Of a stretch of 64,000 nt of DNA, positions 5,102 to 23,512 are shown piece after piece. The notes below the pieces were generated by a model. That model was not told the origin of the DNA. It saw only the letters and a program-made list of their open reading frames with translations, and searched no databases. The DNA comes from Bacillota bacterium (GTDB taxonomy: Bacteria > Bacillota > Clostridia > Peptostreptococcales > Anaerovoracaceae), in NCBI GenBank assembly GCA_017397825.1, contig JAFQHT010000145.1, positions 1,024-65,023 on the forward strand. Reading direction: 5' to 3'. Both the position numbers and the translations under genes were made by a program. Every line of letters starts with the position of its first letter. Position 1 is the first letter of the stretch.

Positions 5102-5153
5102 GATTGCTTCCTTTCTCCTGCAGTCTCCAGTAATCCAGTACCTGTCCAAAGAT

Positions 5154-5303
5154 TTATACGGTTACATCGGAGACCACCCCATATTTCTTTCGAAGTTGAT
5201 TAATTATCAGCTGATATTCGCTGTCTGAAATCAGTTTCTGTTTTTTCAACTGCTTCAGCATCGCTATCTGCATGCTATAATCTAAAAGATTGCTTTTTAC
5301 CAT
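5154..5303 (-). CDS. Small 49-aa protein, SHOCT-like motif (hypothetical)
   Basis: Hand-translated ORF below the track cutoff: MVKSNLLDYSMQIAMLKQLKKQKLISDSEYQLIINQLRKKYGVVSDVTV. It has a GAGG RBS and lies immediately upstream of, and co-oriented with, the recombinase. Confidence 0.4.
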   Translation of the reverse strand: MVKSNLLDYSMQIAMLKQLKKQKLISDSEYQLIINQLRKKYGVVSDVTV

Positions 5304-5337
5304 CTTTGCACCTCATTTTACTTATCTTTTCAAAAAA

Positions 5338-5372
5338 GTAAAATGTGCGAATTCATAAATCGCACATTTTAC
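5338..5372 (-). terminator. 13-bp perfect hairpin with T-run (terminator or attenuator upstream of the recombinase genes)
   Basis: GTAAAATGTGCGA / TCGCACATTTTAC arms. On the minus strand the hairpin is followed by TTTTTTG. Confidence 0.4.
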
Positions 5373-5829
5373 AAGTATCGCATAATGTATTATGCTTAAA
5401 ATTTTGTTGCTAATTGCAGTGACAAAAAGTATTACAAATGCCCCTTGGCACTGCAATTAAATAATTTACCAGGCGGCCGCTGGCGATGCGGCTCCACGGG
5501 CTTCTCACCCCTTTTCCATATTAAGCTGCTCCCATTGCGTGATCCCTGGTGGGGCTGTGGCTGAGCAGGAGTATCATTATCCCCAATCGCCTGTCATCGC
5601 AGATCCGGAAGCCATCCGGATTCTCAGCCCAGTTTGAATCGCTCGGTCAAAACTGACCATCCTGGCGAACCGGCTGAAGTGCTTTGCGCTCATCACGCCT
5701 GCGTTGGGAACGTACCTGATAAAGTATATGCAGTTTTCATGGTCCATATAATGTGAGACTGCTGCCTCACACTATACGGACATTTTTACGGCATATCCAC
5801 AACAGGTAAAAATAAAATTTTTTCAAAAA

Positions 5830-6243
5830 TTAAAAGATTTTTTTGCGGATCTGTTTCAATGTGGCCGAAATCCTCTGCTGGCTCACATTTTCAGCCTGAG
5901 CAATCTCGTTGATGCTCATTCCATGCAGACGCATGGCCAGACGTCTTTGCTGTGTCTCCGTCAATTCATGTATCTTTTCACCGATTTCATGTTCAATTTC
6001 CTTTTCCAAAAGAAGCCCTTCCGGAGTATCCTTGTCAAAGTATTCTTCACCCTCATATGTGATTGCATTGAGGGAATAATTATGTCTGCGTTCTTTTCTG
6101 TTTGAATTTGCTTCTCTTCTGCGGTCTTCAATGATAAATGCTGCTATTCTGTCTTCATCCGCAAACTCCAAATTTACAGATTTTCTGTCCACAAAAATAT
6201 ACCTTATTTTAATTGTCACGTCCGCATATGCCCTGCACCACAC
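5830..6243 (-). CDS. Sigma-70 region-4-like HTH protein typical of Firmicutes ICEs
   Basis: C-terminal LTETQQRRLAMRLHGMSINEIAQAENVSQQRISATLKQIRKKIF. A GTG at 6219 (VTIKIRY...) is an alternative start. Confidence 0.65.
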   Translation of the reverse strand: MWCRAYADVTIKIRYIFVDRKSVNLEFADEDRIAAFIIEDRRREANSNRKERRHNYSLNAITYEGEEYFDKDTPEGLLLEKEIEHEIGEKIHELTETQQRRLAMRLHGMSINEIAQAENVSQQRISATLKQIRKKIF

Positions 6244-6340
6244 ATTTTTTTAATATAAACAGTGCAGTATTCCTCCTACCATACGGGCATATCCGGCAGG
6301 GTTTCACAACAGGCATAAGCAAAATATTTTTGAAAAGCAG

Positions 6341-6378
6341 AAAAGACGTCACCCGGTTTTATACGAATCACGTCTTTT
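6341..6378 (-). terminator. Hairpin terminating the cargo operon
   Basis: AAAAGACGT / ACGTCTTTT arms. On the minus strand a T-rich tract (CTGCTTTTC) follows, downstream of the stop at 6449. Confidence 0.5.
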
Positions 6379-6448
6379 GCATTCCATTCAGACCTCCGGT
6401 TTTCCGGTCAGCCTAATGTTTATATATTATTCTATGGCAACCTATCTG

Positions 6449-7753
6449 CTATTTCACCTTAATCTTCTTCACACTGCTGTAGCTTCCATAAACTTTCGTA
6501 TCATTCACTACCTTATAGGCACGTACCTTCACATAGTAGGTCTTACCCTTCTTCAGCTCCTTGATGGTCTTGGAGCGGGACTTGGAAGAGGAATCCTTTA
6601 CGGATACGGTCTTTGTGTTCTTGGTGAAGTCCTTGTCTGTGGCAATCTTAATCTGGAAGCCATCTGCCATCTGCTGGTTGGTCCAGGACACCTTTAAGGA
6701 ACCGGACTTCGGAGAAGTAGCCTTAACACCTGCAGTCTTTGCAGGGATGTTTTCAAAATACTGTGCCAGGGCATAGTAGGCCTGCTCGGTTGCCATCAGG
6801 TTTACCACTGGTTCATAGCCGCCGCTTGCATGATTTACATGGCGGAAACCGCCTGCATCAGCACCGTCATTGTCGTAATAAGTCATCATGGCATCCAGTA
6901 CGGTTTTACCATTTTTCTTAAAACGCTTGTCAGTATTAGCATTGATACCCAGGTTGGAAAGTGCACTTACCACCTGTGCACTGCTTTCCAGCGTCGGAAC
7001 ACCCCAGCTGCTGAAGCCACCGTCTGCATCCTGCATCTTGGACAGGCAGTTGATAGCCTTGTCGATGGCTGCCTTTACCTTCTTCTGTCCGGAGTATGGT
7101 GCCAGGGATTCCAGACCCATGGCAGTCAGGTCAGGGTCAGATACGCTGCCGCTCAGTGCCCATCCGCCATCCGGCAGCTGATTTTCAATCATATAGTTAA
7201 TCAGCTTCTGACGGGTTGTGAAGTTCTCAATACCGGCTGCTTTCTGCTCTGCTGCAGTCATCTTTGGAATGTCATAATCACCTGCATCCAGGGCACGGAG
7301 TGCGAAAATCGGACCGTTGATGCCCTGCCATACTACCTTATCAAAGTCCGCCAGCATGGCCACCATATCATAGCCGTTAATATCGGTTGGATCAAGGCCC
7401 AGTGCTGCGTAGGCAATAATCACACGGGAGTATTCGGTGTACTTTCTGTCATGGAGAATGCCTTTCACGCCGCGGTAACCATCTTCCAGTGCTGCTTCCA
7501 CAGTCTTCTGATAGCTCTTCACATAGGAGTCCGGGAAGTCGTAGCCCGCTTCTGCCAGACCGTACATGAGCCATTCGCCTCCGATGGAACCAAAGGCAGG
7601 TTCTTTGATAAGATTGTAAAGATAGTCGCCGGTCTTTTCCCAGGCAGCCTTTACATCGCTGTAGGATGCTGCAGAAGCACTTCCCGCACTGCCCAGGCAC
7701 ATAGTCAGCACCAGAGCCAGAATCAGAAGCAGTGATACTAATTTTCTTTTCAT
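6449..7753 (-). CDS. Secreted prenyltransferase/terpene-cyclase-like alpha/alpha-toroid repeat protein with a C-terminal FN3-like domain
   Basis: Signal peptide (MKRKLVSLLLILALVLTMCLGSAGSASA). Repeated toroid motifs (QLPDGGWALS, MQDADGGFSSWG, GGFRH). C-terminal FN3-like module (GKTYYVKVRAYKV). Confidence 0.65.
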   Translation of the reverse strand: MKRKLVSLLLILALVLTMCLGSAGSASAASYSDVKAAWEKTGDYLYNLIKEPAFGSIGGEWLMYGLAEAGYDFPDSYVKSYQKTVEAALEDGYRGVKGILHDRKYTEYSRVIIAYAALGLDPTDINGYDMVAMLADFDKVVWQGINGPIFALRALDAGDYDIPKMTAAEQKAAGIENFTTRQKLINYMIENQLPDGGWALSGSVSDPDLTAMGLESLAPYSGQKKVKAAIDKAINCLSKMQDADGGFSSWGVPTLESSAQVVSALSNLGINANTDKRFKKNGKTVLDAMMTYYDNDGADAGGFRHVNHASGGYEPVVNLMATEQAYYALAQYFENIPAKTAGVKATSPKSGSLKVSWTNQQMADGFQIKIATDKDFTKNTKTVSVKDSSSKSRSKTIKELKKGKTYYVKVRAYKVVNDTKVYGSYSSVKKIKVK

Positions 7754-7780
7754 TCTTTTTTCCTCGCTTTCATTCGCCTT

Positions 7781-8665
7781 TTATGCCATGGAGTTATCGC
7801 CTACGTCCTTGCCCAGGTCGCAGGTATAAACCCACTCAATTACATCGCCGTCACGGAGATAATATGACGAGCATCCGTAGTTCGGGAACCAGCCGTTAAC
7901 CTTGTACATCCATCCGGACAGCGGACCGCCGTCAAACTCGTACAGGTAGTTGATTCCTTCAATATAGTTGGATTCATACACCGGAGTGAAACTGAATTCC
8001 ATGTGTACCCCATTGTTTCTGCAAACGGTGTTGAGTACATCGAACACGGTGTTATCCGTGGTTCCCTGATATACCACATCCTTCAAAATCCATCCGTCTT
8101 CCGGTATGTAATCGCGGATGGACTCGGTTTCCAGCTTGCTCATGTCACTGGAAAGGGTCTCGCAGCTGATGCTGATGGTCACAGTCACCGGCTCCGGTAC
8201 ATCTGGCTTGTAGGCACGGTTGCCGTCATTGGACGCGGTCGGGTCTTTGCTGTTGTCAACCTTCAGTTCTTCTGCTGTCATGTCCTTTGCTTCTTCTTTG
8301 GTCGGACGGTCATCTGCAGGTTTCTGTTCAGGCTCATCAGCCTGGTCTTCTTCAGCGGACTGGTTATCAGAAACATCTTCCTGTTTAACATCAGTCTGCG
8401 TTTCATCATCCTGCTGCAGTTCATCAGACTCAGACTGCTGGATATTATCACCGGTCTGCTGTTCTTCCTGAACCTGCTGCTCCTGCTGGTAATCTACGAT
8501 GTTGCCCTGTCCATCGGGAAGCAGTGCATCTTTGCCTTCAATGCTGAAAATAGAGGCGGTGTAGATGACTGCCGCAATGGCAATCACGCCAAGCACAATG
8601 CGGCGGATACGCTTCTTTCTCAGGTTCTTCGCCAGTTCTTTTTGAAAATCGTGTTTTTCTTCCAT
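7781..8665 (-). CDS. Membrane-anchored DUF4430 (transcobalamin-like C-terminal domain) protein
   Basis: N-terminal TM anchor (IVLGVIAIAAVIYTASIF). About 80 aa of acidic Q/E/D-rich linker. C-terminal domain ending in GPLSGWMYKVNGWFPNYGCSSYYLRDGDVIEWVYT, recognised as DUF4430-like. Confidence 0.7.
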   Translation of the reverse strand: MEEKHDFQKELAKNLRKKRIRRIVLGVIAIAAVIYTASIFSIEGKDALLPDGQGNIVDYQQEQQVQEEQQTGDNIQQSESDELQQDDETQTDVKQEDVSDNQSAEEDQADEPEQKPADDRPTKEEAKDMTAEELKVDNSKDPTASNDGNRAYKPDVPEPVTVTISISCETLSSDMSKLETESIRDYIPEDGWILKDVVYQGTTDNTVFDVLNTVCRNNGVHMEFSFTPVYESNYIEGINYLYEFDGGPLSGWMYKVNGWFPNYGCSSYYLRDGDVIEWVYTCDLGKDVGDNSMA

Positions 8666-8674
8666 AGATACCCC

Positions 8675-9625
8675 CTATTTATATATCCCATATTTAATCT
8701 TAATTCGTTCAATCTTGCGTATCATCGGATCACCCATGAGGAAGATGCAGAAAGCTGCCGCAGCCCCGTGAGCAAGGTCATAAGGAAGCCCGGATACATA
8801 CAGCAGCCTAAGAGTGTTCCAGTTTAGGCCACCGCTTTCACCCATTCCCATGGATGTAACGAAACTGCAGATATTCATCAGGCCGCCATAGAGAATTACG
8901 GTAGTGAAGAACGTAAATACAGTGATTGTGATGCTATCTACCGGCATTCTCTTTCGCTGGAGCAATACCCCCGCCATAAGTCCAAATACGCCGCAGGCAT
9001 ACACAAGCCAAGATGCCTCTTTAATCAGGTTCCAGCCGCATACAAGGCATATTACATAAGCTGTAATCTCAAATGCCGCAATGCACAATACCGGCCCCAT
9101 CACCACGGAGAAGTTTCTGGATTTCAGCCGTTCAGTCTTCTGTCCCAGTTCCACCTTATTAAAGGTCAGCCCCGCAAGGAAGCCTAAAAGCCCCCAGCAG
9201 AACATCTGCCAAGGTGTCCACGGCCCCTGTCCCATATAGAAGTTGCAGACAAATCGTGAGAGTGCTCCTACCAGGAAGCCTGCTTCCGGTCCCATGGCGA
9301 TACCTGCCACAATAACCATGGCAGTCCCAATCTGCAGAGGTACCGTCACATGAAGGAACATGTGGGCTGCCACCGTGATGGCGCTCATCATGGCAACCAG
9401 CACGATTTCACGGGCCTTCGGCTTTCTCTTTTCGAAGACCATGAAAAACGGTGCCATGCAGCAGATAACTACACCTACGCTGATAATCATGTAATACTTG
9501 CCGCCGTCAAGGACGGTGGATAAAGCAATGAGAGCCGGAACTGCCACGAAAATCATCATCGCAGCCATGGCGGTACGCTTCCTTACGGCTTTTGCCCTTA
9601 CCGGATCGTATTCTGTTCTGCCCAT
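8675..9625 (-). CDS. Polytopic membrane protein, putative ECF substrate-specific (S) component (atypically large)
   Basis: 316 aa with about 8 hydrophobic helices. It lies directly downstream of the ECF ATPase with a 28-nt overlap. No enzymatic motifs seen. Confidence 0.55.
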   Translation of the reverse strand: MGRTEYDPVRAKAVRKRTAMAAMMIFVAVPALIALSTVLDGGKYYMIISVGVVICCMAPFFMVFEKRKPKAREIVLVAMMSAITVAAHMFLHVTVPLQIGTAMVIVAGIAMGPEAGFLVGALSRFVCNFYMGQGPWTPWQMFCWGLLGFLAGLTFNKVELGQKTERLKSRNFSVVMGPVLCIAAFEITAYVICLVCGWNLIKEASWLVYACGVFGLMAGVLLQRKRMPVDSITITVFTFFTTVILYGGLMNICSFVTSMGMGESGGLNWNTLRLLYVSGLPYDLAHGAAAAFCIFLMGDPMIRKIERIKIKYGIYK

Positions 9626-11334
9626 GCAGCCACCTCCTCCCAGGTCACAAGGTTTTCATTCCACTGACGCACGATGCGGTTTGCAGTGGTAGTATAGAAG
9701 CTGTTTCCCGCAAAGAACGGTCTTGCAGGGCCTGCAGACACCACATCCCCGTCAAAGAACATGGCGCATCGGTCGCCGTACTCTGCACAGAATTCCACGT
9801 CGTGGGATACCATGAACAGGGTCACGCCCTGCTCTTTCAGCTTCTTAAAGATGCCCGCCAGGGTAATTTTAAAGAACGGGTCAAGGCCCTTGGTCGGTTC
9901 ATCAAGTAATAAAATCTTCGGTTCTAAGAGCAGGATTTTGCCAAGGGCCAGTCTCTGCTGCTCACCACCGGATAAGTCATATGGGTGAGACTTGCGAAGA
10001 TGGCTGATTTCCATTGTTTCAAGCATATTCTCTACCCTTGCTGCCACTTCTTCAGGCGGGAGCTTGCGGTCATAGAGTGCTTCTGCCAGTTCTTCTTCTA
10101 CTGTAATTTCGGTAAAGAGAGCCTGCGGGTTCTGCGGTACCATGGCCATCACGTGCCCCATCAGCTTCCCTGTATTTTCCTTGCAGACTTTCAGGCCGTC
10201 TACAGTGATACTGCCCCTCTGCGGTTTAATCAGCCCCGCCACGGCTTTTAAGGTGGTGGACTTACCGGCACCGTTACCGCCCATGAGGCAGAACAACTCG
10301 CCTGGCTTCACTTTCAGGTTCAAACCACGGAGTACTTGTGGACTGGTTCGGTCATACTGATGCCACAGGTCTTTGATTTCAATAATTGCATCCCCCGGCA
10401 AAATCTCCTCTTCCGGCATTCTCACAGGGTCCAGAGATGCGGATTTTGCGGAGTCTTCCAGAACTGCTTCCAGCCAGAGCCGGCCGTCACGGATGGTCAG
10501 AGGTGCTATACGCTTGCCATCGCTGGTGCGATGAAGGCCCTTTTGCATTTTACTGCCGCCGCAGGCTGAAAAAATCTTCATAACAGACGGAAGACCATAG
10601 AACATAGGGTGGCGTTCCCCCGCGGAGTTTCCTGCCAGGAAGTCACCGATTTTCCACGGGCTGTCACCAGCTATAATGCGGCCCTGATCCATAACCACCA
10701 CCCGGTCTGCCATTGGAATCAGGTCTTCCAGGCGGTGCTCGGAAATGATGACGGTGGTGCCAAGGTCACGGTTGATTTTGTAGACGGTTTTCAGGAACTC
10801 CTCTGCAGCAATCGGATCAAGCTGAGAAGTCGGTTCGTCCAGGATAAGGACTTTCGGCTGCATGACCATAACGGATGCCAGGTTCAGAAGCTGTTTCTGA
10901 CCGCCGGAAAGTTCGGACACGCTCTTGCGGAACCAGGTCTGCATATCGAAGAAGCTTGCCATTTCGGCTACTTTGCGGCGGATAGTCTGGTTGTCCATGC
11001 CCAGGCTTTCAAGACCAAAGGCCAGTTCATGCCATACTTTATCGGTGACAAGCTGGTTGTCCGGGTTCTGCTGTACGAAGCCGATGTCGGTGGTACTGAG
11101 TCTGTCAGGAAGTTCTGCGATTTCCACGCCGCCGTACAGAACGCTGCCTTCCTTATCACCATAAGGAATCAGGTTCTTTTTCAGCTGGCGAAGGAGCGTA
11201 CTCTTGCCGCAGCCGGATTTGCCGCAGATGACGATAAATTCGGACTGCTCTACATCAAGGTTTACATCACGGAGTGCGGGACTTTCTGCCAGCGGATATG
11301 TAAAGGTTAAATTTCGGATTGCAATGCTTGCCAT
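9598..11334 (-). CDS. ECF transporter fused double ATPase (EcfA-EcfA')
   Basis: Two Walker A motifs (GKSGCGKST, GGNGAGKST) and two ABC signatures (LSGGQKQ, LSGGEQQ). Start taken at MASIAIRNLTF. Confidence 0.9.
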   Translation of the reverse strand: MASIAIRNLTFTYPLAESPALRDVNLDVEQSEFIVICGKSGCGKSTLLRQLKKNLIPYGDKEGSVLYGGVEIAELPDRLSTTDIGFVQQNPDNQLVTDKVWHELAFGLESLGMDNQTIRRKVAEMASFFDMQTWFRKSVSELSGGQKQLLNLASVMVMQPKVLILDEPTSQLDPIAAEEFLKTVYKINRDLGTTVIISEHRLEDLIPMADRVVVMDQGRIIAGDSPWKIGDFLAGNSAGERHPMFYGLPSVMKIFSACGGSKMQKGLHRTSDGKRIAPLTIRDGRLWLEAVLEDSAKSASLDPVRMPEEEILPGDAIIEIKDLWHQYDRTSPQVLRGLNLKVKPGELFCLMGGNGAGKSTTLKAVAGLIKPQRGSITVDGLKVCKENTGKLMGHVMAMVPQNPQALFTEITVEEELAEALYDRKLPPEEVAARVENMLETMEISHLRKSHPYDLSGGEQQRLALGKILLLEPKILLLDEPTKGLDPFFKITLAGIFKKLKEQGVTLFMVSHDVEFCAEYGDRCAMFFDGDVVSAGPARPFFAGNSFYTTTANRIVRQWNENLVTWEEVAAWAEQNTIR

Positions 11335-12221
11335 TTCTTTTCTCCCAGTATACCAATGACTGCCGGTGTGAACAGCAAAATGCCGTATGCCGCCAGCGTC
11401 AATATTCTCATAAGATTCCATGTGCCCAGCACAATGGTCGGATAGTAGTTAATTGTGGTAAGGCCCATGATGCAGCCAGCCGCAGTCAGAAGTCCCAGGA
11501 TGGTCATGAAGATAAGCAGCTTCTTGTCCCGGTCTGTGAACTTGAACAGGTGGAAGCTGGTTCTTCCTTTCAGGCCGTAGCCTCTTGCTTCCATGGAGTC
11601 GGATGTTTCAATGGATGCTTCCAGTGACCAGGAAATAAGAATAGAAACTTCCTTCACCGTCTGGCGCACCTTTTCCAGGAAACTCTTTTCCGTGTGGCGG
11701 CCCATGCACCGCTGTCCCATGGAGATTTCGGTATACCGGCTCTTTAAAAGAGGGATAAAGCGGAAAATCATGGACAATGTCAGTGCCAGCACCGGCGCTG
11801 CCTTACCGAAGAGGTAGATAAACTTATCGGATGTCATAATCACATTAAAACAGGAAAACCACACAATCACGGAAGAAAGCATTACCGCCCCAGCCAGTCC
11901 GTAAATGAAAGATTCCAGTGTAATGCGGTTTCCGAACAGGTAAAAGAGCACGGTTGCTCCGTTATGTGTAAAGAGTGTATTGATAACGGCCATGAGAATC
12001 ACGACCGGAATTGTCATAAGTAAGTTGAATTTCAGGCCTTTGCTGCCGGACAGAATGTATGACCAGGTCCAGCTCGCGGCCAGTGTCAGTGCCAGGAAAG
12101 CCGGGTCCATGCTGAACATGGTGATTCCGATGGCAAAGACGAAAAATATGAAGTTTACAGCAGGGTGATACCCTGCAAAGGTACTGGTTTCACCCAGTCC
12201 TGTTCTGTTTTTTTCAGTCAT
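11307..12221 (-). CDS. ECF transporter transmembrane T component (EcfT/CbiQ family)
   Basis: Polytopic protein with the conserved ARG-type coupling motif (SMEARGYGLKGRTSF). It sits directly upstream of the ATPase. Confidence 0.8.
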   Translation of the reverse strand: MTEKNRTGLGETSTFAGYHPAVNFIFFVFAIGITMFSMDPAFLALTLAASWTWSYILSGSKGLKFNLLMTIPVVILMAVINTLFTHNGATVLFYLFGNRITLESFIYGLAGAVMLSSVIVWFSCFNVIMTSDKFIYLFGKAAPVLALTLSMIFRFIPLLKSRYTEISMGQRCMGRHTEKSFLEKVRQTVKEVSILISWSLEASIETSDSMEARGYGLKGRTSFHLFKFTDRDKKLLIFMTILGLLTAAGCIMGLTTINYYPTIVLGTWNLMRILTLAAYGILLFTPAVIGILGEKKWQALQSEI

Positions 12222-12258
12222 TTAAGCTCCTAATACAAAAAACGAAAATATCAACAGG

Positions 12259-12283
12259 TCCCGGGCAGGGTTTCTGCCCGGGA
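12259..12283 (-). other. 10-bp GC-rich hairpin between the giant surface-protein gene and ecfT (possible partial terminator or processing site)
   Basis: TCCCGGGCAG / CTGCCCGGGA arms. The T-run is not immediately adjacent. Confidence 0.35.
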
Positions 12284-12343
12284 TTCTGCTGATTGAATGA
12301 GTTTACCTCATGGAAAACCCCTTGTGATTTTTATTGCAGGATA

Positions 12344-15300
12344 TTACTTGCTCCAGGTTCTGCTTGCATATCTGCACTGCTTCAGAGCAGTTCTTGCAAT
12401 CAGCTTGCCTTCTGCATCGTATACCTGTACGCGTACCTTGTAGTAGTACTTGGTACCCTTCTTACCGCCAGTCTGAGTATAAGTTGTAGTGTCCTTAATC
12501 AGTCTGGAGCTGTACTTGGAAGACTTCTTAGTGGATCTGTAGAAGTTGTACTTCACGGTAAATCCTTCTGCTTCCAGTTCTTCAATGATAGCCTTATCAG
12601 CCTTATCCAGCTGTACGGTTACCTTAATATTCTTCTTGGCAGTCTTGGAAGAACGTGCTACAGGAGTCAGGTCAGCAATCAGAGCCTTCACTTCTTCTGC
12701 AGTCATAGTTTCTTCTTCAACTTCCAGACCGATTTCGTCAGCATCAACCAGTGCAAAGGTGGAGAAGTGAGGAGTATCGAATCTGTAGTGTTTCTTGCCG
12801 CCAACAGTCACTTCCTGACCCTTGAGGTGTTCAATCTTGCCATCGTCTCCGATGTGGATTGCTGCAACCTTCTTACCGTCAAGTTTAGTTGGAATTTCAA
12901 CAGTTACAGTTGCCTTACCTTCGTTGAAGGAAGAAATAGTCTTGTCACCGGACTTGATAACAAGCTGGATAATGTGGCCGTTTTCACCTGCTGCCTGCTT
13001 GTGAACTGCAGTAGGAGCTTTCACTTCCACGATTTCCAGAGTTACGGTGCTTCCTGCAGCTTCAGCTGCTACAGTCTTCAGAACTTCCTGGTCGAGGGAT
13101 ACAGTACCGTTTTCGGTCTTTACAGTCAGAGCTGCAGTAGTATCTTCTACGATATCCTTTACAGTAGCAGTATCCAGCTGAACCTTAACGGTTGCTGCAC
13201 CCTTAGTGTCATCTGCAGATACCTGCAGAACGATTTCGGAAGCCTTGTTTTCAGTTGCCTGCTTGAGAGTTTCGGTTACATTTTCTTTAGTAACAGTTGC
13301 GGTTGCAGTAGAACCAACGATAGTTACTTCGGTTGGAGTAGTGGTAGTGTTGGAAACTGAGCCAGATTCCTTGGAGGTGGTAACTTCAGTCTTTTCTTCT
13401 ACTGCAGGAGGTGCCCAATCTTTACTATCCGGTTCATAAAAATAGTCATCTGTATAGTGGAATATAATTTTGTCACCGTTTTCTAAATACTGCTCAGCAA
13501 CACTAAGTGCAGAATGTTTGCCATTCAGAGTGTACATCCAGCCGGAATTAGGTCCGTTCGTATACTCAGCCAGTTCTTCTTGTGTTCCTGGTTTTGTGAT
13601 GCCCTGTACATAGTTACCCGTTTCATTTCTCCAGGCATATCCTGCATCCCTCAGTGCCATTTCAAAAACATCTCGCACAGTTGCATTGATGCTTACAGGA
13701 TAATTTTTCACATAAATCCATGTCTGCAATCCACCAGTTTCCAAAGTATGGATCTTTTTGTCTGCAGAACTGTCATGAACACTATCTCCAAGCAAAGTAA
13801 ATGATACATTAATAGTTTTCGGATTTTCTGGTGTATCAGCTTTAAGTACTGTCACGGTTATCGTCGTTTCAGCAGTATTGTACTTCAAAGTCACAGTCTG
13901 CAAACCATGCTGATTCTTATTGTATCCATTAATCTGAAGGTCGTTTAAATTCACAGAAGTTCTGCTTCCATCAGACCAATTTGCACTAACAGTTATTCCA
14001 TTTAAATCCAAGTCATCCCCGATGATATACTGAGTCTTATACTCACCGCCAAGGCTTAAGCTGGTCACTATTGGTGTATCACTGATGACTGGATATTTTT
14101 CTCCCTGAATCCAATTCTTATAACTGGATTCAGAATTGTTTAATTCCTGTACAACAGTATTATCCGCTAATTCAGTTTCACTTCTTGGAGAACTGAATTT
14201 GTCTGCACCAACGATCGCACCTGTAACAGCACCTCCAATTCCATCAGCAGTGCCACAATTATCAAGGAAGAAATTTGTTGGATTGCCTTTTGTTTTTGTG
14301 AAATCATTTACGCACCCTATAATTGCACCGACATTTTTTTCGCCATAGAGCTTACCATAGAATAAGTTGTCTGACAGTGCATTGGCACCTTTAATTCCAT
14401 AATCATCGCCGGTGTCATTATAATTGACATGGCCCACTTCTGAACCAATTATGCCTCCTACTTCTTCGACACCTTTAATATCAGCTGCTACATAACAATT
14501 ATGTATTTGAACTACCGGTGTTCCTGAAGCACCTCCAATATATCCAGAACCTGCAATGCCGCCTACTCTCATACCGGATGCTTCTATTGTTCCTAAAAAT
14601 GCACTGTTTTTTACAGTACACGGTCCTATAGACTGTCCTTTTGAACCGAATAAACCACCTACATAATCTACGCCATAAACTGCAGCATAGCTTTTACTGT
14701 TTTCAATGGTTCCATTAAAATCTCCACAGAAAGATCCAATTCGGCTTTGGTCTTTGTTATATCCAATAACAACACCATCTTCAATCAGACAGTTGCGAAT
14801 ATTAATGGCATTAACTCCCGATGCATATCCCCCGGCGAATCCCGATTTTAAAATCTTTGTTCCCGATTTTATGGTTACTTTTTCAATATCAATAGTTCGT
14901 AATTTTACCGTGTCATTTTGATATTCTCCTGTTTCGCCATAGTCAACTACATATTTGTCAAGTAAACCGTATCCATCAATATGATTTCCCTGAATTGTCA
15001 TATTTTTAATCGTTGCATGACGTGCATAGTTCAAGAGTGGTTTCCCGTAATCTGCAATAATTAAAGAATACCCCTTGCCATCGATGGTTCCACTAAAAGG
15101 CTGCAGACTAATGCCACAATCATTCTCTTTTCCTCCAGGTTTCAGATTGCCGATTGGTTTCCACGTTTCTGATAACTCAATATTATTTGCAAATGCCAGA
15201 ACCTGTCCTGAAAAGCTAAATGGCTGCCCAGCTTCTCCTTCAACTAACTTTTTCACGTAATTCAGGTCATCTTCGTTATGAATCAGATACGGATCACTTT

Positions 15301-17062
15301 CTGTTCCTGAGCCTTTCAGTCCAGTAACAACATCCGTAGAATCTTTAAATGTTACCTGTACAGGATTACTTACTATACTGTCTCCTGTAAAACCTTCAGA
15401 CGAGACTTTAATTTCCGCATAATAGAAATACGATCCTATTACATCTTGTGTATCATTTAAAGTAACACTATATTTATTACATTTTTTCTCATCTTTAGTA
15501 GTGTTTCCATCGCTACGGCATTCAGTTGCGATTAGCTCACTTCCTTCAAAACTTGCTGTTTCATTGCGATACATGGAAATTTTATAATCTACACCTTCTA
15601 TAGGGTCGTTATTCGAAGCAGCAAGCAAACCAATTTCAAACGATGGTTTCTCCCCTTTGAACAATATATCCTTACCACTTATCTGGAGAGGTATCAAAAT
15701 TTCAGGAGCAGTAAGTGTGCTTGATCTAACTTCATAGTTTATATCATTGGATGTAGACTCAAAAGATATACCATCAACTGTATAGGTAACAACACAGAAG
15801 TATTTTTCTGTTCCTATATATTTCGTTGAAGGCTGATAGGATGATTCTGTTGCACCATTGATTATTTTTTTATTTGTTCCCAGATATCTGTACCACTGAT
15901 AAGATAATGTTCCTTCGCCATCTGTCGGTTCACTCACAACAGCCGTCAGCATTTTTCCACTGCCTTTTTCAGTAGTCACATCGTCGATTTTTTCTATAAC
16001 AGGAGATAAGTCCTTTTTACATACGAATAAGGTGTATTCAGTCTCTAATTCCCCATTTTTGACTTTGATAGGAATGCAGGCACGATCTGATTCCGGTGTA
16101 GGCTTGTATTTGGTCAGTTCATATTTATTATTTTTAGCGTCATACTTTTCTTCACCTACCCATATTTCTGTTTCCGTACTATCAATCTTAGTTGTTGTTG
16201 ATTCAAGATTTAAATTAATTTCATTCGCAGCAGTAATTGTAGTAAAATTATTATTATATGGGTCAACTACAGAATTAAATGCCGGAGTAACAGTCAAATT
16301 ATCTGTTCCCACGCTCACGCTTAAAGTTTTTAGGGTTAAGCTTCGCGTGATAAGGTAATCATACGAATCATAATTAACAAAGCTACCATCCTTATCCACT
16401 GGCCCAACTTTGACAGTCAATTTCGTTTGTTTTCCAGCAGGGAAGTTCTGAATTCTAAGGATTTGTTTAAACGGATCCGATGTGGTTTTCTTCGTTAATG
16501 CAATCTTGGTATTTTTTTGTTCGACACCATCGATTAGTAAAGAAACATGCAACTTTAAATCTATACAATCATCTGGTATAGTGATATTAATTTTTGAAGT
16601 CATATTTCTTGAGTCAGGAAGTACTAAACTATATTCTTTTGTATTTGCCTGGAAGACACAATCTTCGACAATTCCGCTAGTTACTAGTTGATTAACATTG
16701 AATGTGATATCTTCTACATACCCGTGTATCTCATTACCACTGTTGTCTGCTGGTTCACTCACAGTCTGCGGAGAATCCTGCTGCTGTTCCGAATTAGCAC
16801 CCAGTTCCGTCAGGGCTGCAGCTGCCACAGTGCCGTTATCAACGGTTGCCACAGCGGCATTGCTGCTTAATTTAATCGTTTCCACGGGCACAACATCCGT
16901 ACTCCCGCCATCTTCCACTGATGCCGATACTACAACTTCATCACCACTGCCTGTAATGGTTCCATCCTCAGCAAATGCCATACTGGGCATCATTGTGAAA
17001 ACCATCATGAATACCAGAAGCAGTGAAATCAGTCTTGAACTTTTTTTCATGTTCTTTTTCAT
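12344..17062 (-). CDS. 1572-aa secreted multidomain protein: Ig-like repeats, GLUG-motif region, internal DUF4430 domain, C-terminal FN3-like module
   Basis: Signal peptide (MKKNMKKSSRLISLLLVFMMVFTMMPSMAFA). GLUG-type repeats (VGGLFGS, VGGIAGS, VGGIIGS, VGAIIGC; about nt 14288-14680). DUF4430-like segment at aa ~1083-1207 (nt 13442-13816; NSGWMYTLNGKHSALSVAEQYLENGDKIIFHYT). No LPXTG signal. Confidence 0.8.
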   Translation of the reverse strand: MKKNMKKSSRLISLLLVFMMVFTMMPSMAFAEDGTITGSGDEVVVSASVEDGGSTDVVPVETIKLSSNAAVATVDNGTVAAAALTELGANSEQQQDSPQTVSEPADNSGNEIHGYVEDITFNVNQLVTSGIVEDCVFQANTKEYSLVLPDSRNMTSKINITIPDDCIDLKLHVSLLIDGVEQKNTKIALTKKTTSDPFKQILRIQNFPAGKQTKLTVKVGPVDKDGSFVNYDSYDYLITRSLTLKTLSVSVGTDNLTVTPAFNSVVDPYNNNFTTITAANEINLNLESTTTKIDSTETEIWVGEEKYDAKNNKYELTKYKPTPESDRACIPIKVKNGELETEYTLFVCKKDLSPVIEKIDDVTTEKGSGKMLTAVVSEPTDGEGTLSYQWYRYLGTNKKIINGATESSYQPSTKYIGTEKYFCVVTYTVDGISFESTSNDINYEVRSSTLTAPEILIPLQISGKDILFKGEKPSFEIGLLAASNNDPIEGVDYKISMYRNETASFEGSELIATECRSDGNTTKDEKKCNKYSVTLNDTQDVIGSYFYYAEIKVSSEGFTGDSIVSNPVQVTFKDSTDVVTGLKGSGTESDPYLIHNEDDLNYVKKLVEGEAGQPFSFSGQVLAFANNIELSETWKPIGNLKPGGKENDCGISLQPFSGTIDGKGYSLIIADYGKPLLNYARHATIKNMTIQGNHIDGYGLLDKYVVDYGETGEYQNDTVKLRTIDIEKVTIKSGTKILKSGFAGGYASGVNAINIRNCLIEDGVVIGYNKDQSRIGSFCGDFNGTIENSKSYAAVYGVDYVGGLFGSKGQSIGPCTVKNSAFLGTIEASGMRVGGIAGSGYIGGASGTPVVQIHNCYVAADIKGVEEVGGIIGSEVGHVNYNDTGDDYGIKGANALSDNLFYGKLYGEKNVGAIIGCVNDFTKTKGNPTNFFLDNCGTADGIGGAVTGAIVGADKFSSPRSETELADNTVVQELNNSESSYKNWIQGEKYPVISDTPIVTSLSLGGEYKTQYIIGDDLDLNGITVSANWSDGSRTSVNLNDLQINGYNKNQHGLQTVTLKYNTAETTITVTVLKADTPENPKTINVSFTLLGDSVHDSSADKKIHTLETGGLQTWIYVKNYPVSINATVRDVFEMALRDAGYAWRNETGNYVQGITKPGTQEELAEYTNGPNSGWMYTLNGKHSALSVAEQYLENGDKIIFHYTDDYFYEPDSKDWAPPAVEEKTEVTTSKESGSVSNTTTTPTEVTIVGSTATATVTKENVTETLKQATENKASEIVLQVSADDTKGAATVKVQLDTATVKDIVEDTTAALTVKTENGTVSLDQEVLKTVAAEAAGSTVTLEIVEVKAPTAVHKQAAGENGHIIQLVIKSGDKTISSFNEGKATVTVEIPTKLDGKKVAAIHIGDDGKIEHLKGQEVTVGGKKHYRFDTPHFSTFALVDADEIGLEVEEETMTAEEVKALIADLTPVARSSKTAKKNIKVTVQLDKADKAIIEELEAEGFTVKYNFYRSTKKSSKYSSRLIKDTTTYTQTGGKKGTKYYYKVRVQVYDAEGKLIARTALKQCRYASRTWSK

Positions 17063-17161
17063 TTTATTATATTTTCCTTTCTCCGGACATCAGCTGCCCG
17101 GCCGCCTTTCGCAGTTTTATCTGCGATTTATCTATGTCAAACACTTAATGTACAAGTGTGG

Positions 17162-17491
17162 TTACCTAGTGGTCTGAAGGAGACATTCTGTTGCAATACG
17201 CTCTTCTCTGCACTTTTTACGGTTTTCCGCAGAACGTTTCCGCATCTCTGTGTGCTTCTTCCTATATTTTTCTTTTCTGTGCAGATGCTTCTCTGATACC
17301 GGCTTCAACCCGGCCTGTTCCAGAATTCTCGGCCACGGTCCGAATCTCTGTTTGAAATAGAACGCACATGCAACATCATCCTTTATAGGCAGCCGGCCAA
17401 GTTCTGCTGCCTTCTGGCGTAGTATATCCAGAAGTGCTTCATCACTCATCAGGGTATATTCCGCTGTGATGCGTTTTTCTTCCTGTGTCAT
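17162..17491 (-). CDS. Small protein with one homing-endonuclease-associated (HEARO-like) repeat and a basic tail
   Basis: DEALLDILRQKAAELGRLPIKDD...FKQRFGPWPRILEQAGLKP followed by a K/R-rich tail. The start overlaps the upstream stop (TAATG). Confidence 0.5.
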   Translation of the reverse strand: MTQEEKRITAEYTLMSDEALLDILRQKAAELGRLPIKDDVACAFYFKQRFGPWPRILEQAGLKPVSEKHLHRKEKYRKKHTEMRKRSAENRKKCREERIATECLLQTTR

Positions 17492-17817
17492 TATTTACCC
17501 TCCTCCGCTTGTTTACGTGTTTCTGCAGATTTATCTCTTGCAGCCTGCAGTTTCCGTCTGCTGGCAGCCTTTCTTCTCTGATGGGTCTTGGAGGCCGGCT
17601 TCAGCCCTGCCTTCTCAAGCATTCTCGTCCATGGGCCGAACCGCTCTTTTAGATACCACGTCAGCTCCATCTCGGATTTTAATGGGCGGCGCCCCAGCTC
17701 TACAGCCTTTTGCTGCACCACTGCCAGAAGTTCCTCATCGCTCATCTGCTTATATTTACTTAATAAAAATTCTTCTTCCTCTGTTAAATGAAGTTTGAAA
17801 TCGTCGAAATCTTTCAT
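17491..17817 (-). CDS. Paralog of 17162..17491 (HEARO-like repeat and basic tail)
   Basis: DEELLAVVQQKAVELGRRPLKSE...LKERFGPWTRMLEKAGLKP. Start taken at MKDFDDFKL (17817). Confidence 0.5.
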   Translation of the reverse strand: MKDFDDFKLHLTEEEEFLLSKYKQMSDEELLAVVQQKAVELGRRPLKSEMELTWYLKERFGPWTRMLEKAGLKPASKTHQRRKAASRRKLQAARDKSAETRKQAEEGK

Positions 17818-17985
17818 GTTCAAGTTACTTCCTGTTTCTATGTATTGAGAGAGCGGAGCAGCACCTTCGAGGGTTTTCTCTGCTCCGCAGAATGAAAAGA
17901 CTATTTTTATAAAACAAAAAGGCTGTAACAAAACTACCAGATCTACTGGTAATTTCATTACAGCCCGGGTTTCCTGTAATAGGTA

Positions 17986-18220
17986 CAAAAACAACAAAAA
18001 ACACCTGTATCATTCCCCGTGATACTGTGCCTTCGCTTTTCCACTTTCATGCATGTTTTCTGACTTGTGCGTCATCGCGTTCTCCGTCTTCTCAAAATAC
18101 TACAGGTTCCTGCTCATATTTCAATGACATAATGGAGAAAACTCTTCACCTACAGCGGCGGGTGCCGTACCGGACTTCGACCGGATTCCATCTTAGCCCC
18201 AGGCTTCCGTCGCCCAGGGA
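17986..18220 (-). promoter_or_regulatory. Probable cobalamin riboswitch (short form lacking the peripheral extension) with terminator
   Basis: Minus-strand core TAAGATGGAATCCGGTCGAAGTCCGGTACGGCACCCGCCGCTGTAGG. Then ATTATGTCATTG and a degenerate B12 box, GAGCAGGAACCTGT. Hairpin at 18002-18029 followed by TTTTTTGTTGTTTTT. Confidence 0.55.
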
Positions 18221-18280
18221 ACATAAAAGCTCTATTTAATTGTATATTTTGCTTTCCATTACGATTTCACAGCCTGTCAG

Positions 18281-18304
18281 TCCGAGAAAGTATACTTCCC
18301 CGGA
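18281..18304. promoter_or_regulatory. 24-bp imperfect palindrome, copy 1 (candidate operator)
   Basis: TCCGAGAAAGTATACTTCCCCGGA, centred on the perfect palindrome AAGTATACTT. Confidence 0.4.
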
Positions 18305-18405
18305 TGCTTACAAACCACTTAAATCGTACATATTCTATCATCAAATATTCAGAAAATCAACTGTTTTCGTGCAGATTTTGAATAAAAATTATCTCAGGAG
18401 AACGG

Positions 18406-18429
18406 TCCGGGAAAGTATACTTTTCCGGA
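18406..18429. promoter_or_regulatory. 24-bp imperfect palindrome, copy 2 (candidate operator)
   Basis: TCCGGGAAAGTATACTTTTCCGGA. It matches copy 1 at 21 of 24 positions and lies 125 bp away. Confidence 0.4.
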
Positions 18430-18543
18430 CTTTTTGGTTTTTGTTGGAATTTCAAGGTTTTAGGTGATTTACGATACTTCAAAGTTGCTCATTATTTATG
18501 TTCCCGTTATCGGGCATACTATATCCGGGAGGTGATTTGAATT

Positions 18544-18663
18544 ATGAATAAAGACATTGCCAAGCTCAGTCCTGCTGATATTGCAGCCATTTCTGATACA
18601 GAACAGAAGCTGAATAAGAACCGGGATACCAAGATTGCATTAGTTGCCTATAACACGAAGTAA
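18544..18663 (+). CDS. Hypothetical 39-aa protein
   Basis: Hand-translated: MNKDIAKLSPADIAAISDTEQKLNKNRDTKIALVAYNTK. GGGAGG RBS 8 nt upstream and a terminator immediately downstream. Confidence 0.3.
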   Translation: MNKDIAKLSPADIAAISDTEQKLNKNRDTKIALVAYNTK

Positions 18664-18665
18664 TT

Positions 18666-18711
18666 AAAAAACGCAAATGAAACGTATTTTTACGAATCAT
18701 TTGCGTTTTGA
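18666..18711. terminator. Bidirectional terminator hairpin between convergent genes
   Basis: AACGCAAATGA / TCATTTGCGTT 11-bp arms, flanked by A-runs and T-runs. Confidence 0.6.
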
Positions 18712-18712
18712 T

Positions 18713-19261
18713 TTATTTCTTGTCATTATGAAAAGCCAACATGCCGAACAGGTAAAGATGCTCCGACGACCATGCCAGTTCCAGACCGCAGCGTTCCGCC
18801 AGCTTAGCCACATCGATACAGTAGGCAGACATACAGCTGATTCTCTGGTCCGGATGACGGCAAGGAAGATTTTGACGGCGCAGGCAAGGCTCGCACAGCG
18901 GACAGCCGTTGTAACCGGAACAGAATCCATAATATCCCTGTTTCTCCATTTCGGCCTTCAACCGGAGCACCATCTGATTATGAGCTTTTTTAGCCTTCTG
19001 CACGGTTTCCTTGTCTTCATATCCTGCAATATCCCAAATTGTCTGAACGATCAGAACCCGTTCTTCTGCCAGAATGTTCTGCCGAAGAGCTTCGACCGGG
19101 CCGCAGTCTGGCGGGCAGGAATAATTGGCATTGTAATTGCCGCAGAGGTTCTGCTCACAGTAAACACGAAATTTCGCGTCCACCGGAACGTCTTCCGGCT
19201 TTATCAAAGCCGCACGGAAGCCATGTGCCTCCGCCATGAGAAGGAGTTCTTTTTCAGTCAT
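18713..19261 (-). CDS. DUF2284-type predicted metal-binding (Cys-rich) protein
   Basis: Cys clusters (YCEQNLCGNY..YSCPPDCG; CPLCEPCLRR..PCRHP). Family name recalled from memory. Confidence 0.6.
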   Translation of the reverse strand: MTEKELLLMAEAHGFRAALIKPEDVPVDAKFRVYCEQNLCGNYNANYSCPPDCGPVEALRQNILAEERVLIVQTIWDIAGYEDKETVQKAKKAHNQMVLRLKAEMEKQGYYGFCSGYNGCPLCEPCLRRQNLPCRHPDQRISCMSAYCIDVAKLAERCGLELAWSSEHLYLFGMLAFHNDKK

Positions 19262-19267
19262 AGATGA

Positions 19268-19696
19268 TTACACCTCTTGATTACTTTGACATTCCGCCTT
19301 CCAGCAGAGTTTGTAAAGTGATTTGTTTGTTTTGCCTGCTGGCTGCAGAACGCCCACATCACATAACTTCTGCAAGTAGCGCCATGCGGTAGCCGAAGAT
19401 TTACCTGTCAATTCTACAACTGTTTGAGTCTTGATTTCTTCGTGCTCTTCTAAATATTCAATAATATTATAAAGTTTTTTATACTCACTTTCTTTCAAAA
19501 CTTCTTTCAAAACTTCTTTCATTTTTTCATTTTTTTGAATTAAGTTTGAATCGTCATTTAGAAATCCTTCATGGATAAACAGTCTTGAAATAAAATAGGT
19601 TCTACCCTCATCGGTTTCAAATTCCGGTTTTGGAGAGCCATTCGCTTCCAAAGCATCAAGGATTTTCTTAAATCCGGTATTTCTGCCTTCTGTCAA
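19268..19696 (-). pseudogene. 5'-truncated remnant of an AlbA_2/HATPase_c_4-type regulator gene (C-terminal part plus wHTH only)
   Basis: It begins mid-domain (TEGRNTGFKKILDALEANGSPKPEFETDEGRTYF), whereas the full-length neighbour is 480 aa. It is flanked by a 25-bp direct duplication. Confidence 0.6.
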
Positions 19697-19796
19697 ATGA
19701 AGTTCTTTCAGAAAATCTCCAACAGCAGAAGGAGTTCTTTTTCAGTCATAGTTAGTTACCTCGGTAGTTTGTACGGCAGTGGTGCTATTTTGTCTT

Positions 19797-21239: not shown

Positions 21240-21256
21240 ATCGCCCCTCCATCTTA

Positions 21257-21341
21257 CTTCAAGTTTATTTCATTTTACTTCAAAGTCACTTCAAAGTCAA
21301 CTTCAAGTTCGCTTCAAACAAACTTCAATAATAATTGAAGT
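21257..21341. repeat. Array of six direct CTTCAA repeats at 11-12 bp phasing (one 21-bp gap), ending in the palindrome ACTTCAAT-AATA-ATTGAAGT
   Basis: CTTCAA starts at 21257, 21278, 21289, 21301, 21312 and 21323. The inverted copy TTGAAG is at 21335-21340. Confidence 0.7.
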
Positions 21342-21451
21342 TCATGTCATTATTATATACTGTTTTCTGTAACTTACCCCTTACCATTCTCCTATTGACA
21401 TCTCCCACCACTTGCCATATAATCAATCAAAACTTCCGAAGGAGACAAACT

Positions 21452-21940
21452 ATGAAACCTGTAATTATAGACGAAAACAAAATTTACGCCATTGGATATT
21501 CTTATGCGACTGATTGGAAAAATCTCTGCCGTACCACAGACCGTGCTGCTTACTGGTCCGTCATTGATTTTTCAAATATGGATAAGTCTGCTTATGCCGG
21601 TATTGAGAACAAGTCCGGCATGGAGATTGCCTTCTGGTTATGCCGTGAAACCGGCGATTTTGAAATGAGGTTCTTCTTCGGCGAAAGAGTGGATGCTGTC
21701 GGAGCTGTACCGGAAGGCATGGAGGTGCTGGAAATCCCGGAAGCAAAATACGCTGTTTTCACACTGGATTCCCAGTTCACATCTGCAGATCAGTCAGCTT
21801 ACGTCGAAGCAATTCGTAATCTGTGGCAGTATATCATCGAAGAATGGCTGCCTGGCAGCGGATACCGCCACGATGATGAGAAATGTAATTTCGAAGTGTA
21901 CTCCGGTGATGTAATGCAGATTTATATCCCTATTTGCTGA
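21452..21940 (+). CDS. GyrI-like / AraC-effector-binding-domain small-molecule-binding protein
   Basis: Start at MKPVIIDENKIYAIGYSY with a GGAG RBS. About 160 aa. The motif pattern (KYAVFT..., EWLPGSGYRHDD...FEVY) is typical of GyrI-like domains. Confidence 0.55.
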   Translation: MKPVIIDENKIYAIGYSYATDWKNLCRTTDRAAYWSVIDFSNMDKSAYAGIENKSGMEIAFWLCRETGDFEMRFFFGERVDAVGAVPEGMEVLEIPEAKYAVFTLDSQFTSADQSAYVEAIRNLWQYIIEEWLPGSGYRHDDEKCNFEVYSGDVMQIYIPIC

Positions 21941-22548: not shown

Positions 22549-22605
22549 GTATATCATTCTCCTTCTACGATTTCATCTCAGGAGAACGCTGCTGCGAATT
22601 GAGCC

Positions 22606-22636
22606 AAAAGAAAAGAAGCCCGGCTCTCCAGGCTTC
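22606..22636 (-). terminator. Rho-independent terminator after the 99-aa gene
   Basis: GAAGCCTGG-AGAG-CCGGGCTTC followed by TTTTCTTTT on the minus strand. Confidence 0.7.
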
Positions 22637-22680
22637 CCTTCCACTAATATTAACTATGGAAAACAAAAAGTAACATTTTT

Positions 22681-22980: not shown

Positions 22981-23086
22981 AGTGATACCTCCATGTATTG
23001 AAATTTTTTGTTTGGGTCTTGCAGGAGATGGGGCGAAGCTGCACACGGCACCCACGCCCCAAAATGAATGAAAAGAACAATTGCAA

Positions 23087-23393: not shown

Positions 23394-23414
23394 GGATATT
23401 CAGTTTATATGGGG

Positions 23415-23443: not shown

Positions 23444-23461
23444 CCCCCAATTTGAAAAATA

Positions 23462-23502: not shown

Positions 23503-23512
23503 GAGTGTTTAA

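Follow-up and report, generated by a model that had tools for sequence, protein, structure and literature searches.

A riboswitch-led operon on a conjugative element of Clostridia is a candidate corrinoid capture and import system

Introduction

Transporters of the energy-coupling factor (ECF) type are normally defined by the absence of a soluble binding protein. One of them, ECF-CbrT of Lactobacillus delbrueckii (PDB 6FNP), imports cobalamin and cobinamide, and hemin did not compete for its B12 uptake (PMC5997447). Extracellular capture is known from Bacteroides, where BtuG, BtuH and BtuJ are surface corrinoid binders (PMC8941943, PMC13616437) and where btu loci and B12 transporters are carried on conjugative transposons (PMC8759732); for Gram-positive Firmicutes, a review of September 2026 states that extracellular cobamide capture “remains entirely uncharacterized” (PMC13616437). 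The L. sakei operon lsa1836-1840, which encodes an ECF S component, an AA' ATPase, a T component and transcobalamin-like “beta” and “alpha” proteins, has a heme-uptake phenotype (Verplaetse et al., bioRxiv 10.1101/864751). Here we describe an eight-gene operon from a 64,000-nt stretch of DNA (“the window”) of a gut-type Bacillota bacterium in the Anaerovoracaceae (Clostridia; contig JAFQHT010000145.1, positions 1,024 to 65,023), which we consider likely to be a B12-repressed corrinoid capture and import system carried as cargo of a conjugative element.

Like ECF-CbrT (PMC5997447), the operon specifies T, A and A' components together with an S component that aligns to CbrT; unlike it, the operon itself encodes a dedicated energizing module, the two ATPases are fused, a riboswitch stands in control, and three extracellular proteins are added, while the S component has an N-terminal extension and an insertion of about 90 aa that CbrT lacks. 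The same Gram-positive part list, namely S, AA', T, a secreted beta-like protein and a secreted (“alpha-like”) toroid, is matched by the published description of L. sakei lsa1836-1840, an operon which, unlike that of the window, lacks a giant DUF4430 protein, HNH_repeat proteins and any mobile-element context; by counts of the term, the text of that paper does not mention a riboswitch, in contrast to the RF00174 leader seen here. Transcobalamin, intrinsic factor and haptocorrin share with the operon the fold and Pfam family of the DUF4430 beta-domain (PMC4350170) and have a partner of the same alpha/alpha-toroid fold class. In those carriers a single chain runs from alpha to beta, whereas here there are two separate polypeptides or, in one relative (locus L099 of the survey below), a beta-then-alpha fusion, and the toroid is terpene-cyclase-like, without detectable homology to the carrier alpha-domain. 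As with BtuG/BtuH/BtuJ and the btuGBFCD conjugative transposons of Bacteroides, extracellular capture would feed a dedicated importer under B12-riboswitch control, as conjugative fitness cargo of gut bacteria (PMC8941943, PMC13616437, PMC8759732); the folds, however, have nothing in common (nothing here matched those families), the importer is of ECF type rather than an outer-membrane TonB/BtuB system with BtuFCD, and both the phylum and the ICE (integrative and conjugative element) family are different.

The locus is a member of a large family, comprising more than 2000 toroid and more than 4000 DUF4430 protein clusters, which has not been studied under a B12 reading; it is not a new category. 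An earlier reading of the window without database searches (“the original prediction”), which knew of no described Gram-positive equivalent, overstated the novelty: an operon of the same parts had been published from L. sakei for heme, mobile B12 cargo was known in Bacteroides, and the system is widespread on Clostridia chromosomes and not peculiar to this ICE.

Results

Pfam and NCBIfam assign to the operon eight co-oriented minus-strand genes behind a cobalamin riboswitch (Table 1), in agreement with the products that had been named in the original prediction. The cobalamin-riboswitch-like leader proposed there is borne out by a full-length RF00174 match of 92.9 bits and a terminator hairpin 68 nt 3' of the aptamer end; the operon boundary had been set at 18220, which cuts the aptamer, as it runs on to 18241. 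Judged from sequence and predicted folding, the hairpin and its U-tract UUUUUGUUUU form a classic transcription-terminating expression platform. The position of this platform (17965..17921) places the start of the first gene at ATG 17817, giving 108 aa, and not at the upstream TTG 17997 at which the gene starts in the mechanical list of open reading frames (ORFs).

In transcription order the gene junctions measure -1 (TAATG), +99, +122, -28, -28, +9 and +27 nt. The description of these junctions as very tight holds for the TAATG, the two 28-nt overlaps and the short gaps of 9 and 27 nt; the gaps of 99 and 122 nt had gone unmentioned, and a terminator scan found no terminator-like site in either. 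The hairpin that had been proposed to close the unit is real and is the likely end of transcription, although the strict terminator scan missed it, in all likelihood owing to its long loop. Upstream of the aptamer lies a promoter-like site, for which the evidence is weak, such sites being no more numerous in the region than in shuffled sequence. A 25-nt palindromic element, GTCCGRGAAAGTATACTTYYCCGGA, is found in two copies 125 nt apart (18280-18304 and 18405-18429), one on either side of this putative promoter, and the two may serve as paired operators or as an insulating hairpin. The idea of a conserved operator was set aside, since the palindrome is present only in copies of this element and has no comparative support.

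Table 1. Features of the window, with positions counted from its first letter.
Feature	Position	Strand	Characteristics
Surrounding ICE, about 45 kb	3353..48408	minus	Recombinase, sigma70_r4, pemK RNA, cargo, conjugation genes; housekeeping genes flank both sides
Large serine recombinase	3353-5149		Within the ICE
pemK RNA motif RF02913	5494-5580	minus	42.8 bits; near the recombinase end of the ICE
3' hairpin and U-rich tract	6341..6378	minus	Likely end of the transcription unit; -22.1 kcal/mol, z -5.2
Secreted alpha/alpha-toroid protein, 434 aa	6449..7753	minus	Signal peptide; SQHop_cyclase_C 25.2 bits (cutoff 26.1); C-terminal FN3 domain (fn3)
Membrane-tethered DUF4430 protein, 294 aa	7781..8665	minus	Transmembrane (TM) segment 23-41, acidic linker of about 100 aa, C-terminal DUF4430; PF14478 65.1 bits (cutoff 23.8)
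Enlarged CbrT-like ECF S component, 316 aa	8675..9625	minus	PF07155 68.5 bits (cutoff 26.7)
Fused ECF ATPases A-A', 578 aa	9598..11334	minus	Length from the ATG that gives the 28-nt overlap; TIGR04520 373.9 bits (cutoff 315); two ABC_tran domains
ECF T component (EcfT)	11307..12221	minus	CbiQ 24.4 bits (cutoff 25); multiple TM segments; EARG coupling motif
Giant secreted surface protein, 1572 aa	12344..17062	minus	Signal peptide, VGG[LI][FAI]G repeat region, Big_3, DUF4430, FN3-like C-terminus
HNH_repeat protein 2, 109 aa	17162..17491	minus	Small, cytoplasmic; paralog of protein 1; TAATG overlap; PF18780 52.6 bits
HNH_repeat protein 1, 108 aa	17491..17817	minus	Small, cytoplasmic; K/R-rich tail; PF18780 55.6 bits
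Riboswitch expression platform	17921..17965	minus	20-bp terminator hairpin and U-tract UUUUUGUUUU; -32.5 kcal/mol, z -8.0 against shuffles
Cobalamin riboswitch aptamer RF00174	18033..18241	minus	92.9 bits (gathering score 31.5); full model 1-189
Promoter-like site	18332..18360	minus	TTGATT, 17-nt spacer, TG-TAGAAT; consensus scan only; about 90 nt upstream of the aptamer
99-aa cytoplasmic protein (MRVEWFENPDN...)	22681..22980	minus	Behind the second riboswitch
Terminator-like hairpin of the second riboswitch	23171..23151	minus
Second cobalamin riboswitch RF00174	23223..23405	minus	In the cargo region; 118.1 bits, stronger than that of the operon
AbiEii/DUF6088 toxin-antitoxin-like pair	28455-29973	minus	Inside the conjugation module
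2126-aa surface protein	37201-43581	minus	Thioester (TED), SpaA and T-Q ester-bond domains
RepA_N	47467-48408		End of the ICE

DUF4430 domains occur in the tethered protein and at residues ~1151-1204 of the giant protein (PF14478, 32.2 bits); the latter has no LPXTG motif, and its residues ~1060-1572 are kept in related loci. The tethered domain was modelled with AlphaFold2 (pLDDT 92.8) and the model compared with the PDB by Foldseek; ranks 1-16 were all beta-domains of transcobalamin, intrinsic factor or haptocorrin, with a best E-value of 1.8e-5 and a TMt of 0.75 to 5NO0, the isolated human transcobalamin beta-domain. Ranks 17 and 19 were a bacterial DUF4430 structure and rank 18 intrinsic factor, after which the E-value worsened about 60-fold. 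A profile of DUF4430 sequences had no match in the PDB; sequence profiles against that database being blind to the link with transcobalamin, it took Pfam and structure to see it, and an hhalign comparison with the transcobalamin beta-domain gave a weak but in-register match (E 0.021). On the strength of the model, the DUF4430 domain has the fold of the transcobalamin beta-domain, and the kinship with the C-terminal domain of transcobalamin and intrinsic factor that the original prediction had stated is upheld.

The assignments of DUF4430 and of the toroid, which the prediction had exposed to profile searches, both survived them, the toroid with a score slightly under the SQHop_cyclase_C cutoff and with 29 of 31 members of its family matching that profile. 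The best structural matches of the toroid model (pLDDT 91.8) are class II terpene cyclases, with FN3 domains for the C-terminus, and the geranylgeranyltransferase template named in the Methods of Verplaetse et al. (bioRxiv 10.1101/864751) agrees with a prenyltransferase/cyclase-like fold. Neither a D.DD (DxDD) nor a DCTAE motif is present in the 434-aa protein, which has a single QW-like motif; the missing DxDD and the secretion of the protein rule out a terpene-cyclase enzyme, the scores also lying under the family cutoffs.

Three further genes of the operon supply what an ECF transporter requires, namely a (borderline) T component, a pair of ATPase domains and an S component that is an integral membrane protein. 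Homologs of the T component in other loci score as CbiQ. For the S component the only significant match of known structure is 6FNP_A, the CbrT chain of ECF-CbrT (E 1.2e-7), with both halves of the 182-aa chain aligned, and the one other solved S component listed at E<=1, 4HZU_S, is not significant (E 0.13); the S component is CbrT-like.

To place the operon among its relatives, one genome per species was scanned, 482 stretches with toroid relatives were confirmed, and 80 loci from different Clostridia species were kept (numbered with the prefix L below). They come from Anaerovoracaceae, Oscillospiraceae, Lachnospiraceae, Intestinimonas, Flavonifractor, Lawsonibacter, Sporobacter, Vallitalea, Cellulosilyticum, Clostridium, Peptostreptococcaceae and Tissierellales. 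In this survey, which was seeded by the toroid, 72 of the 80 loci have a DUF4430 gene on the strand of the toroid gene and within 4 kb of it. Where at least 6 kb of sequence was available on both sides (n=40), every locus has DUF4430 (40/40), 26 have the full ECF set of T, AA' and S, 27 a giant-like protein and 12 an HNH_repeat protein. Of 15 loci scanned, 14 have RF00174 upstream on the operon strand, some of them as a tandem, and it is also found upstream in L007, L095, L097 and L099; in L020, L023 and L026 the riboswitch stands directly ahead of a DUF4430-toroid pair with no ECF genes nearby. The systematic co-occurrence of toroid, DUF4430, ECF genes and RF00174 is what the original prediction had expected a survey of genomic context to show. 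In L099/L100, DUF4430 and the toroid are fused, in that order, in a single 2045-aa ORF, a Rosetta-stone link between the two. Taken together, these data assign the toroid/DUF4430 pair firmly to the Clostridia B12 regulon, and they make it likely that the two proteins are physical partners.

The surface anchors of these proteins differ by lineage: dockerin with an adjacent cohesin (L007, L095), SLH (L011) or, in the window, a TM tether. Such lineage-specific anchors on the same parts argue for a location at the cell surface. In the rumen-type relatives L007 (9977-12663) and L095 (7221-11133) it is the toroid protein that carries the dockerin, and the next gene encodes the cohesin, which suggests a cellulosome-style surface assembly of B12-capture proteins. 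The L099 fusion ORF (7335-13472) reads Cadherin-like, Big_3, DUF4430 and then, in frame, a toroid 45% identical to that of the window, and it lies behind an RF00174 riboswitch and a zf-like/HNH_repeat gene pair. Three contigs with a Clostridia-type toroid and DUF4430 (L029, L044 and L055; ~50-53% identity to the window's toroid) are filed as Bacteroides stercoris, Alistipes communis and Bacteroidaceae bins; the probable cause is mis-binning, to which mobile DNA can be prone, with transfer across phyla as the alternative.

The first two genes of the operon encode paralogs that are 49% identical, each with a single PF18780 repeat and a K/R-rich tail. PF18780 is the homing endonuclease associated repeat, and the label “HEARO-like” given in the original prediction is rejected as a misnomer: the window has no Rfam match to HEARO RNA at the gathering threshold and the proteins, at ~108 aa, have no nuclease domain. 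Seven contexts of stand-alone HNH_repeat relatives were looked up and all seven are B12 loci, six for uptake and one, in L003, at the end of a cbi biosynthesis operon (the loci with such proteins are L003, L007, L011, L095, L097, L099 and L101). In the window and in L007, L095, L097 and L099, the HNH_repeat gene, or a zf-like/HNH_repeat pair, comes immediately after a riboswitch. A search of solved structures with an HNH_repeat protein gave no match, and a literature search for a link between PF18780 and B12 found none; by their genomic contexts, the small stand-alone HNH_repeat proteins appear to be specific companions of B12 loci. A cysteine-rich zf-like (PF04071) small protein is encoded beside the HNH_repeat gene in two unrelated B12 loci, L003 (8280-8579) and L099 (6723-7004), and is by position a further, uncharacterised small partner of such loci.

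A relaxase, a coupling protein, a VirB4-type ATPase and a site-specific recombinase occur in one block between housekeeping genes. The operon is located inside this block, with the conjugation module to one side and the recombinase to the other, which bears out its description as ICE cargo in the original prediction. From this gene content, the B12 operon is best described as cargo of a serine-recombinase ICE of about 45 kb, placed between the conjugation module and the regulation/recombination module. After the cargo the element continues with CHAP, a VirB4-like ATPase, AbiEii, the coupling protein (T4CP), the relaxase, a TQ/TED adhesin, RadC, ParB and RepA_N; the 2126-aa TED/SpaA/T-Q protein is probably a mating adhesin. 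LuxR and SBP genes flank one side, and RumA-like methyltransferase, V-ATPase and WhiA genes the other. RumA/RlmD-like genes are known integration targets of serine-recombinase ICEs in Firmicutes; at 48409-50356, the right end of the element is adjoined by a TRAM/uracil-5-methyltransferase (RumA/RlmD-like) gene, whose 3' end faces it.

When the CHAP and DUF4430 proteins were looked up by exact match, only 4-5 contigs came back, and those long enough to show this region all have the same cargo, so that the look-ups gave no instance of the same ICE backbone with different cargo. Most related loci have no conjugation genes within 10 kb, and the system is therefore mainly chromosomal. In L101/L102 a second, diverged copy of the system (37-55% identity) is followed by sigma70_r4, pemK RNA, PemK and serine recombinases, the order in L101 being operon, WYL, S24, M78, sigma70_r4, pemK RNA, PemK and three serine recombinases; the HNH_repeat protein of the L101 locus (P0162) was found on 23 contigs. 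A VirB4 homolog lies about 3 kb from the operon in L074 (20577-20915; 66% identity over 114 aa, at the edge of the locus). Given the contexts of L101/L102 and L074, mobile carriage appears recurrent, and B12 cargo may be a recurrent feature of this ICE family. In L003 (13944-16255), a cbi biosynthesis operon is convergent with NlpC/P60 and VirB4 genes (58% identical).

The second cobalamin riboswitch of the cargo region precedes a gene for a 99-aa protein with no match in Pfam or NCBIfam. By tblastn, homologs of this protein lie inside the toroid/DUF4430 loci L020, L031, L053, L082 and L088; in L088 it is placed between the genes for the toroid and DUF4430. An exact 14-nt direct repeat, ATCTCAGGAGAACG, occurs at 18391-18404 and 22575-22588 (chance expectation ~0.06) and brackets DUF2284, an HTH fragment, a Schlafen/AlbA_2-HATPase_c_4 protein and a small resolvase. 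The arrangement is only suggestive; the bracketed block may be a secondary insertion which split the unit of second riboswitch and 99-aa gene from the main operon.

Discussion

The corrinoid-capture reading of the operon is well supported in silico, and each computational check that the original prediction had called for turned out in its favour. At high intracellular cobalamin, the RF00174 aptamer would bind it and the hairpin would end transcription. When B12 is scarce, the extracellular binders would be made: DUF4430, held on a TM tether with a long acidic linker and present also within the giant protein, and a secreted, catalytically dead, terpene-cyclase-like toroid. We suppose that toroid and DUF4430 would clamp the corrinoid between them, as the alpha- and beta-domains of transcobalamin do, on the grounds of their near-obligate adjacency and natural fusion. 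The corrinoid would then be handed to the enlarged CbrT-like S component and imported with ATP by the dedicated EcfT-EcfAA', to which homology points, with corrinoid as the proposed substrate. The two HNH_repeat proteins are conserved companions of loci of this kind. With the operon located inside the ICE, conjugation would hand the complete kit on to a recipient.

Several observations weigh against this reading. B12 riboswitches also govern genes other than B12 transporters, for example those for cobalt uptake and B12-independent isozymes. We know of no binding, transport or regulation experiment on any riboswitch-controlled member of the family. The toroid and EcfT score just under the curated Pfam cutoffs; the mobility of the ICE is deduced from gene content alone, and the exact element occurs in only 4-5 contigs. 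None of the 31 members of the toroid family matches PF01122 (Cobalamin_bind) at E<=10, hhalign gives a probability of 0.18% for the toroid against the verified human transcobalamin sequence, and transcobalamin is not among the 50 Foldseek matches listed for the toroid. A toroid profile search of the PDB likewise returned no transcobalamin at E<=10, and homology of the toroid to the transcobalamin alpha-domain was rejected as unsupported by phmmer or profile searches of the PDB, by Pfam, by Foldseek and by hhalign, the fold class alone being common. With this relation undetectable, the clamp rests on context and not on homology, and the picture of a “split transcobalamin” is one of homology on the beta side and of fold-class analogy alone on the alpha side. 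Moreover, only one operon with this set of parts has been studied by experiment, L. sakei lsa1836-1840, and it is tied to heme uptake (bioRxiv 10.1101/864751).

This last point raises the question of whether the window's operon also takes up heme (an iron-tetrapyrrole), by split transcobalamin-like proteins and an ECF transporter. In L. sakei, less heme accumulated when the operon was deleted, a defect that complementation repaired (bioRxiv 10.1101/864751), and ECF-type heme import also occurs in Staphylococcus lugdunensis (PMC7299338). A cobalamin riboswitch, however, stands ahead of the operon and of 14 of the 15 related loci scanned, the DUF4430 fold matches that of corrinoid carriers, and the sole significant solved relative of the S component is CbrT, with whose B12 uptake hemin did not compete (PMC5997447); we consider heme a very unlikely substrate. 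Another alternative is the import of an incomplete corrinoid or a B12 building block (cobinamide, lower ligand) for salvage or remodelling instead of complete cobamides. ECF-CbrT does carry cobinamide as well (PMC5997447). Two different DUF4430 proteins within a single operon could mean more than one class of ligand, and a small HNH_repeat relative closes the cbi biosynthesis operon in L003. Yet the transcobalamin-family beta-domain contacts the nucleotide loop of complete cobalamin, and neither the operon nor the cargo region was seen to hold genes for salvage or remodelling (cobU/S/T, cbiZ). We judge this alternative to be unlikely.

An explanation that dispenses with capture altogether would make the operon a B12-regulated importer of cobalt or another small substrate, with the large surface proteins as adhesins or wall proteins that are merely co-transcribed. 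The best Pfam and NCBIfam matches of the T component are indeed of CbiQ type, the giant protein has adhesin-like Ig domains, and B12 riboswitches commonly govern cobalt transporters. There is, however, no S component of the CbiM/CbiN type in the operon, the one present being CbrT-like, and the toroid and DUF4430 genes, together in most of the loci and often riboswitch-led with no ECF genes nearby, are hard to square with incidental co-transcription. We regard this as a highly improbable account of the operon.

With corrinoid capture and import kept as the preferred reading, the operon probably represents a transferable kit for B12 scavenging, one of a type that Gram-positive bacteria commonly have but that is unstudied in them. 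A further-reaching proposal is possible, if somewhat doubtful as a whole: a widespread two-chain analogue of transcobalamin in Clostridia, in which DUF4430 and an unrelated, dead terpene-cyclase-type toroid would jointly capture corrinoids extracellularly and supply a CbrT-like ECF transporter, the kit would move between species on serine-recombinase ICEs, and the HNH_repeat proteins would be a new, dedicated component of B12 homeostasis. If true, this would break the rule by which ECF transporters do without binding proteins outside the cell, and the HNH_repeat proteins, often encoded by the first gene behind the riboswitch, could for example be a regulator or an intracellular corrinoid handler.

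Corrinoid competition shapes gut communities, and the locus, together with its hundreds of relatives, is a concrete candidate for the missing Gram-positive capture machinery. Its location on an ICE means that the concept of mobile cargo for vitamin scavenging, known from Bacteroides, is extended to Clostridia, and the riboswitch context suggests that the heme operon of L. sakei may deserve a re-test with B12. The bacterial pair of beta-domain and toroid bears, finally, on the origin of the B12 carriers of animals.

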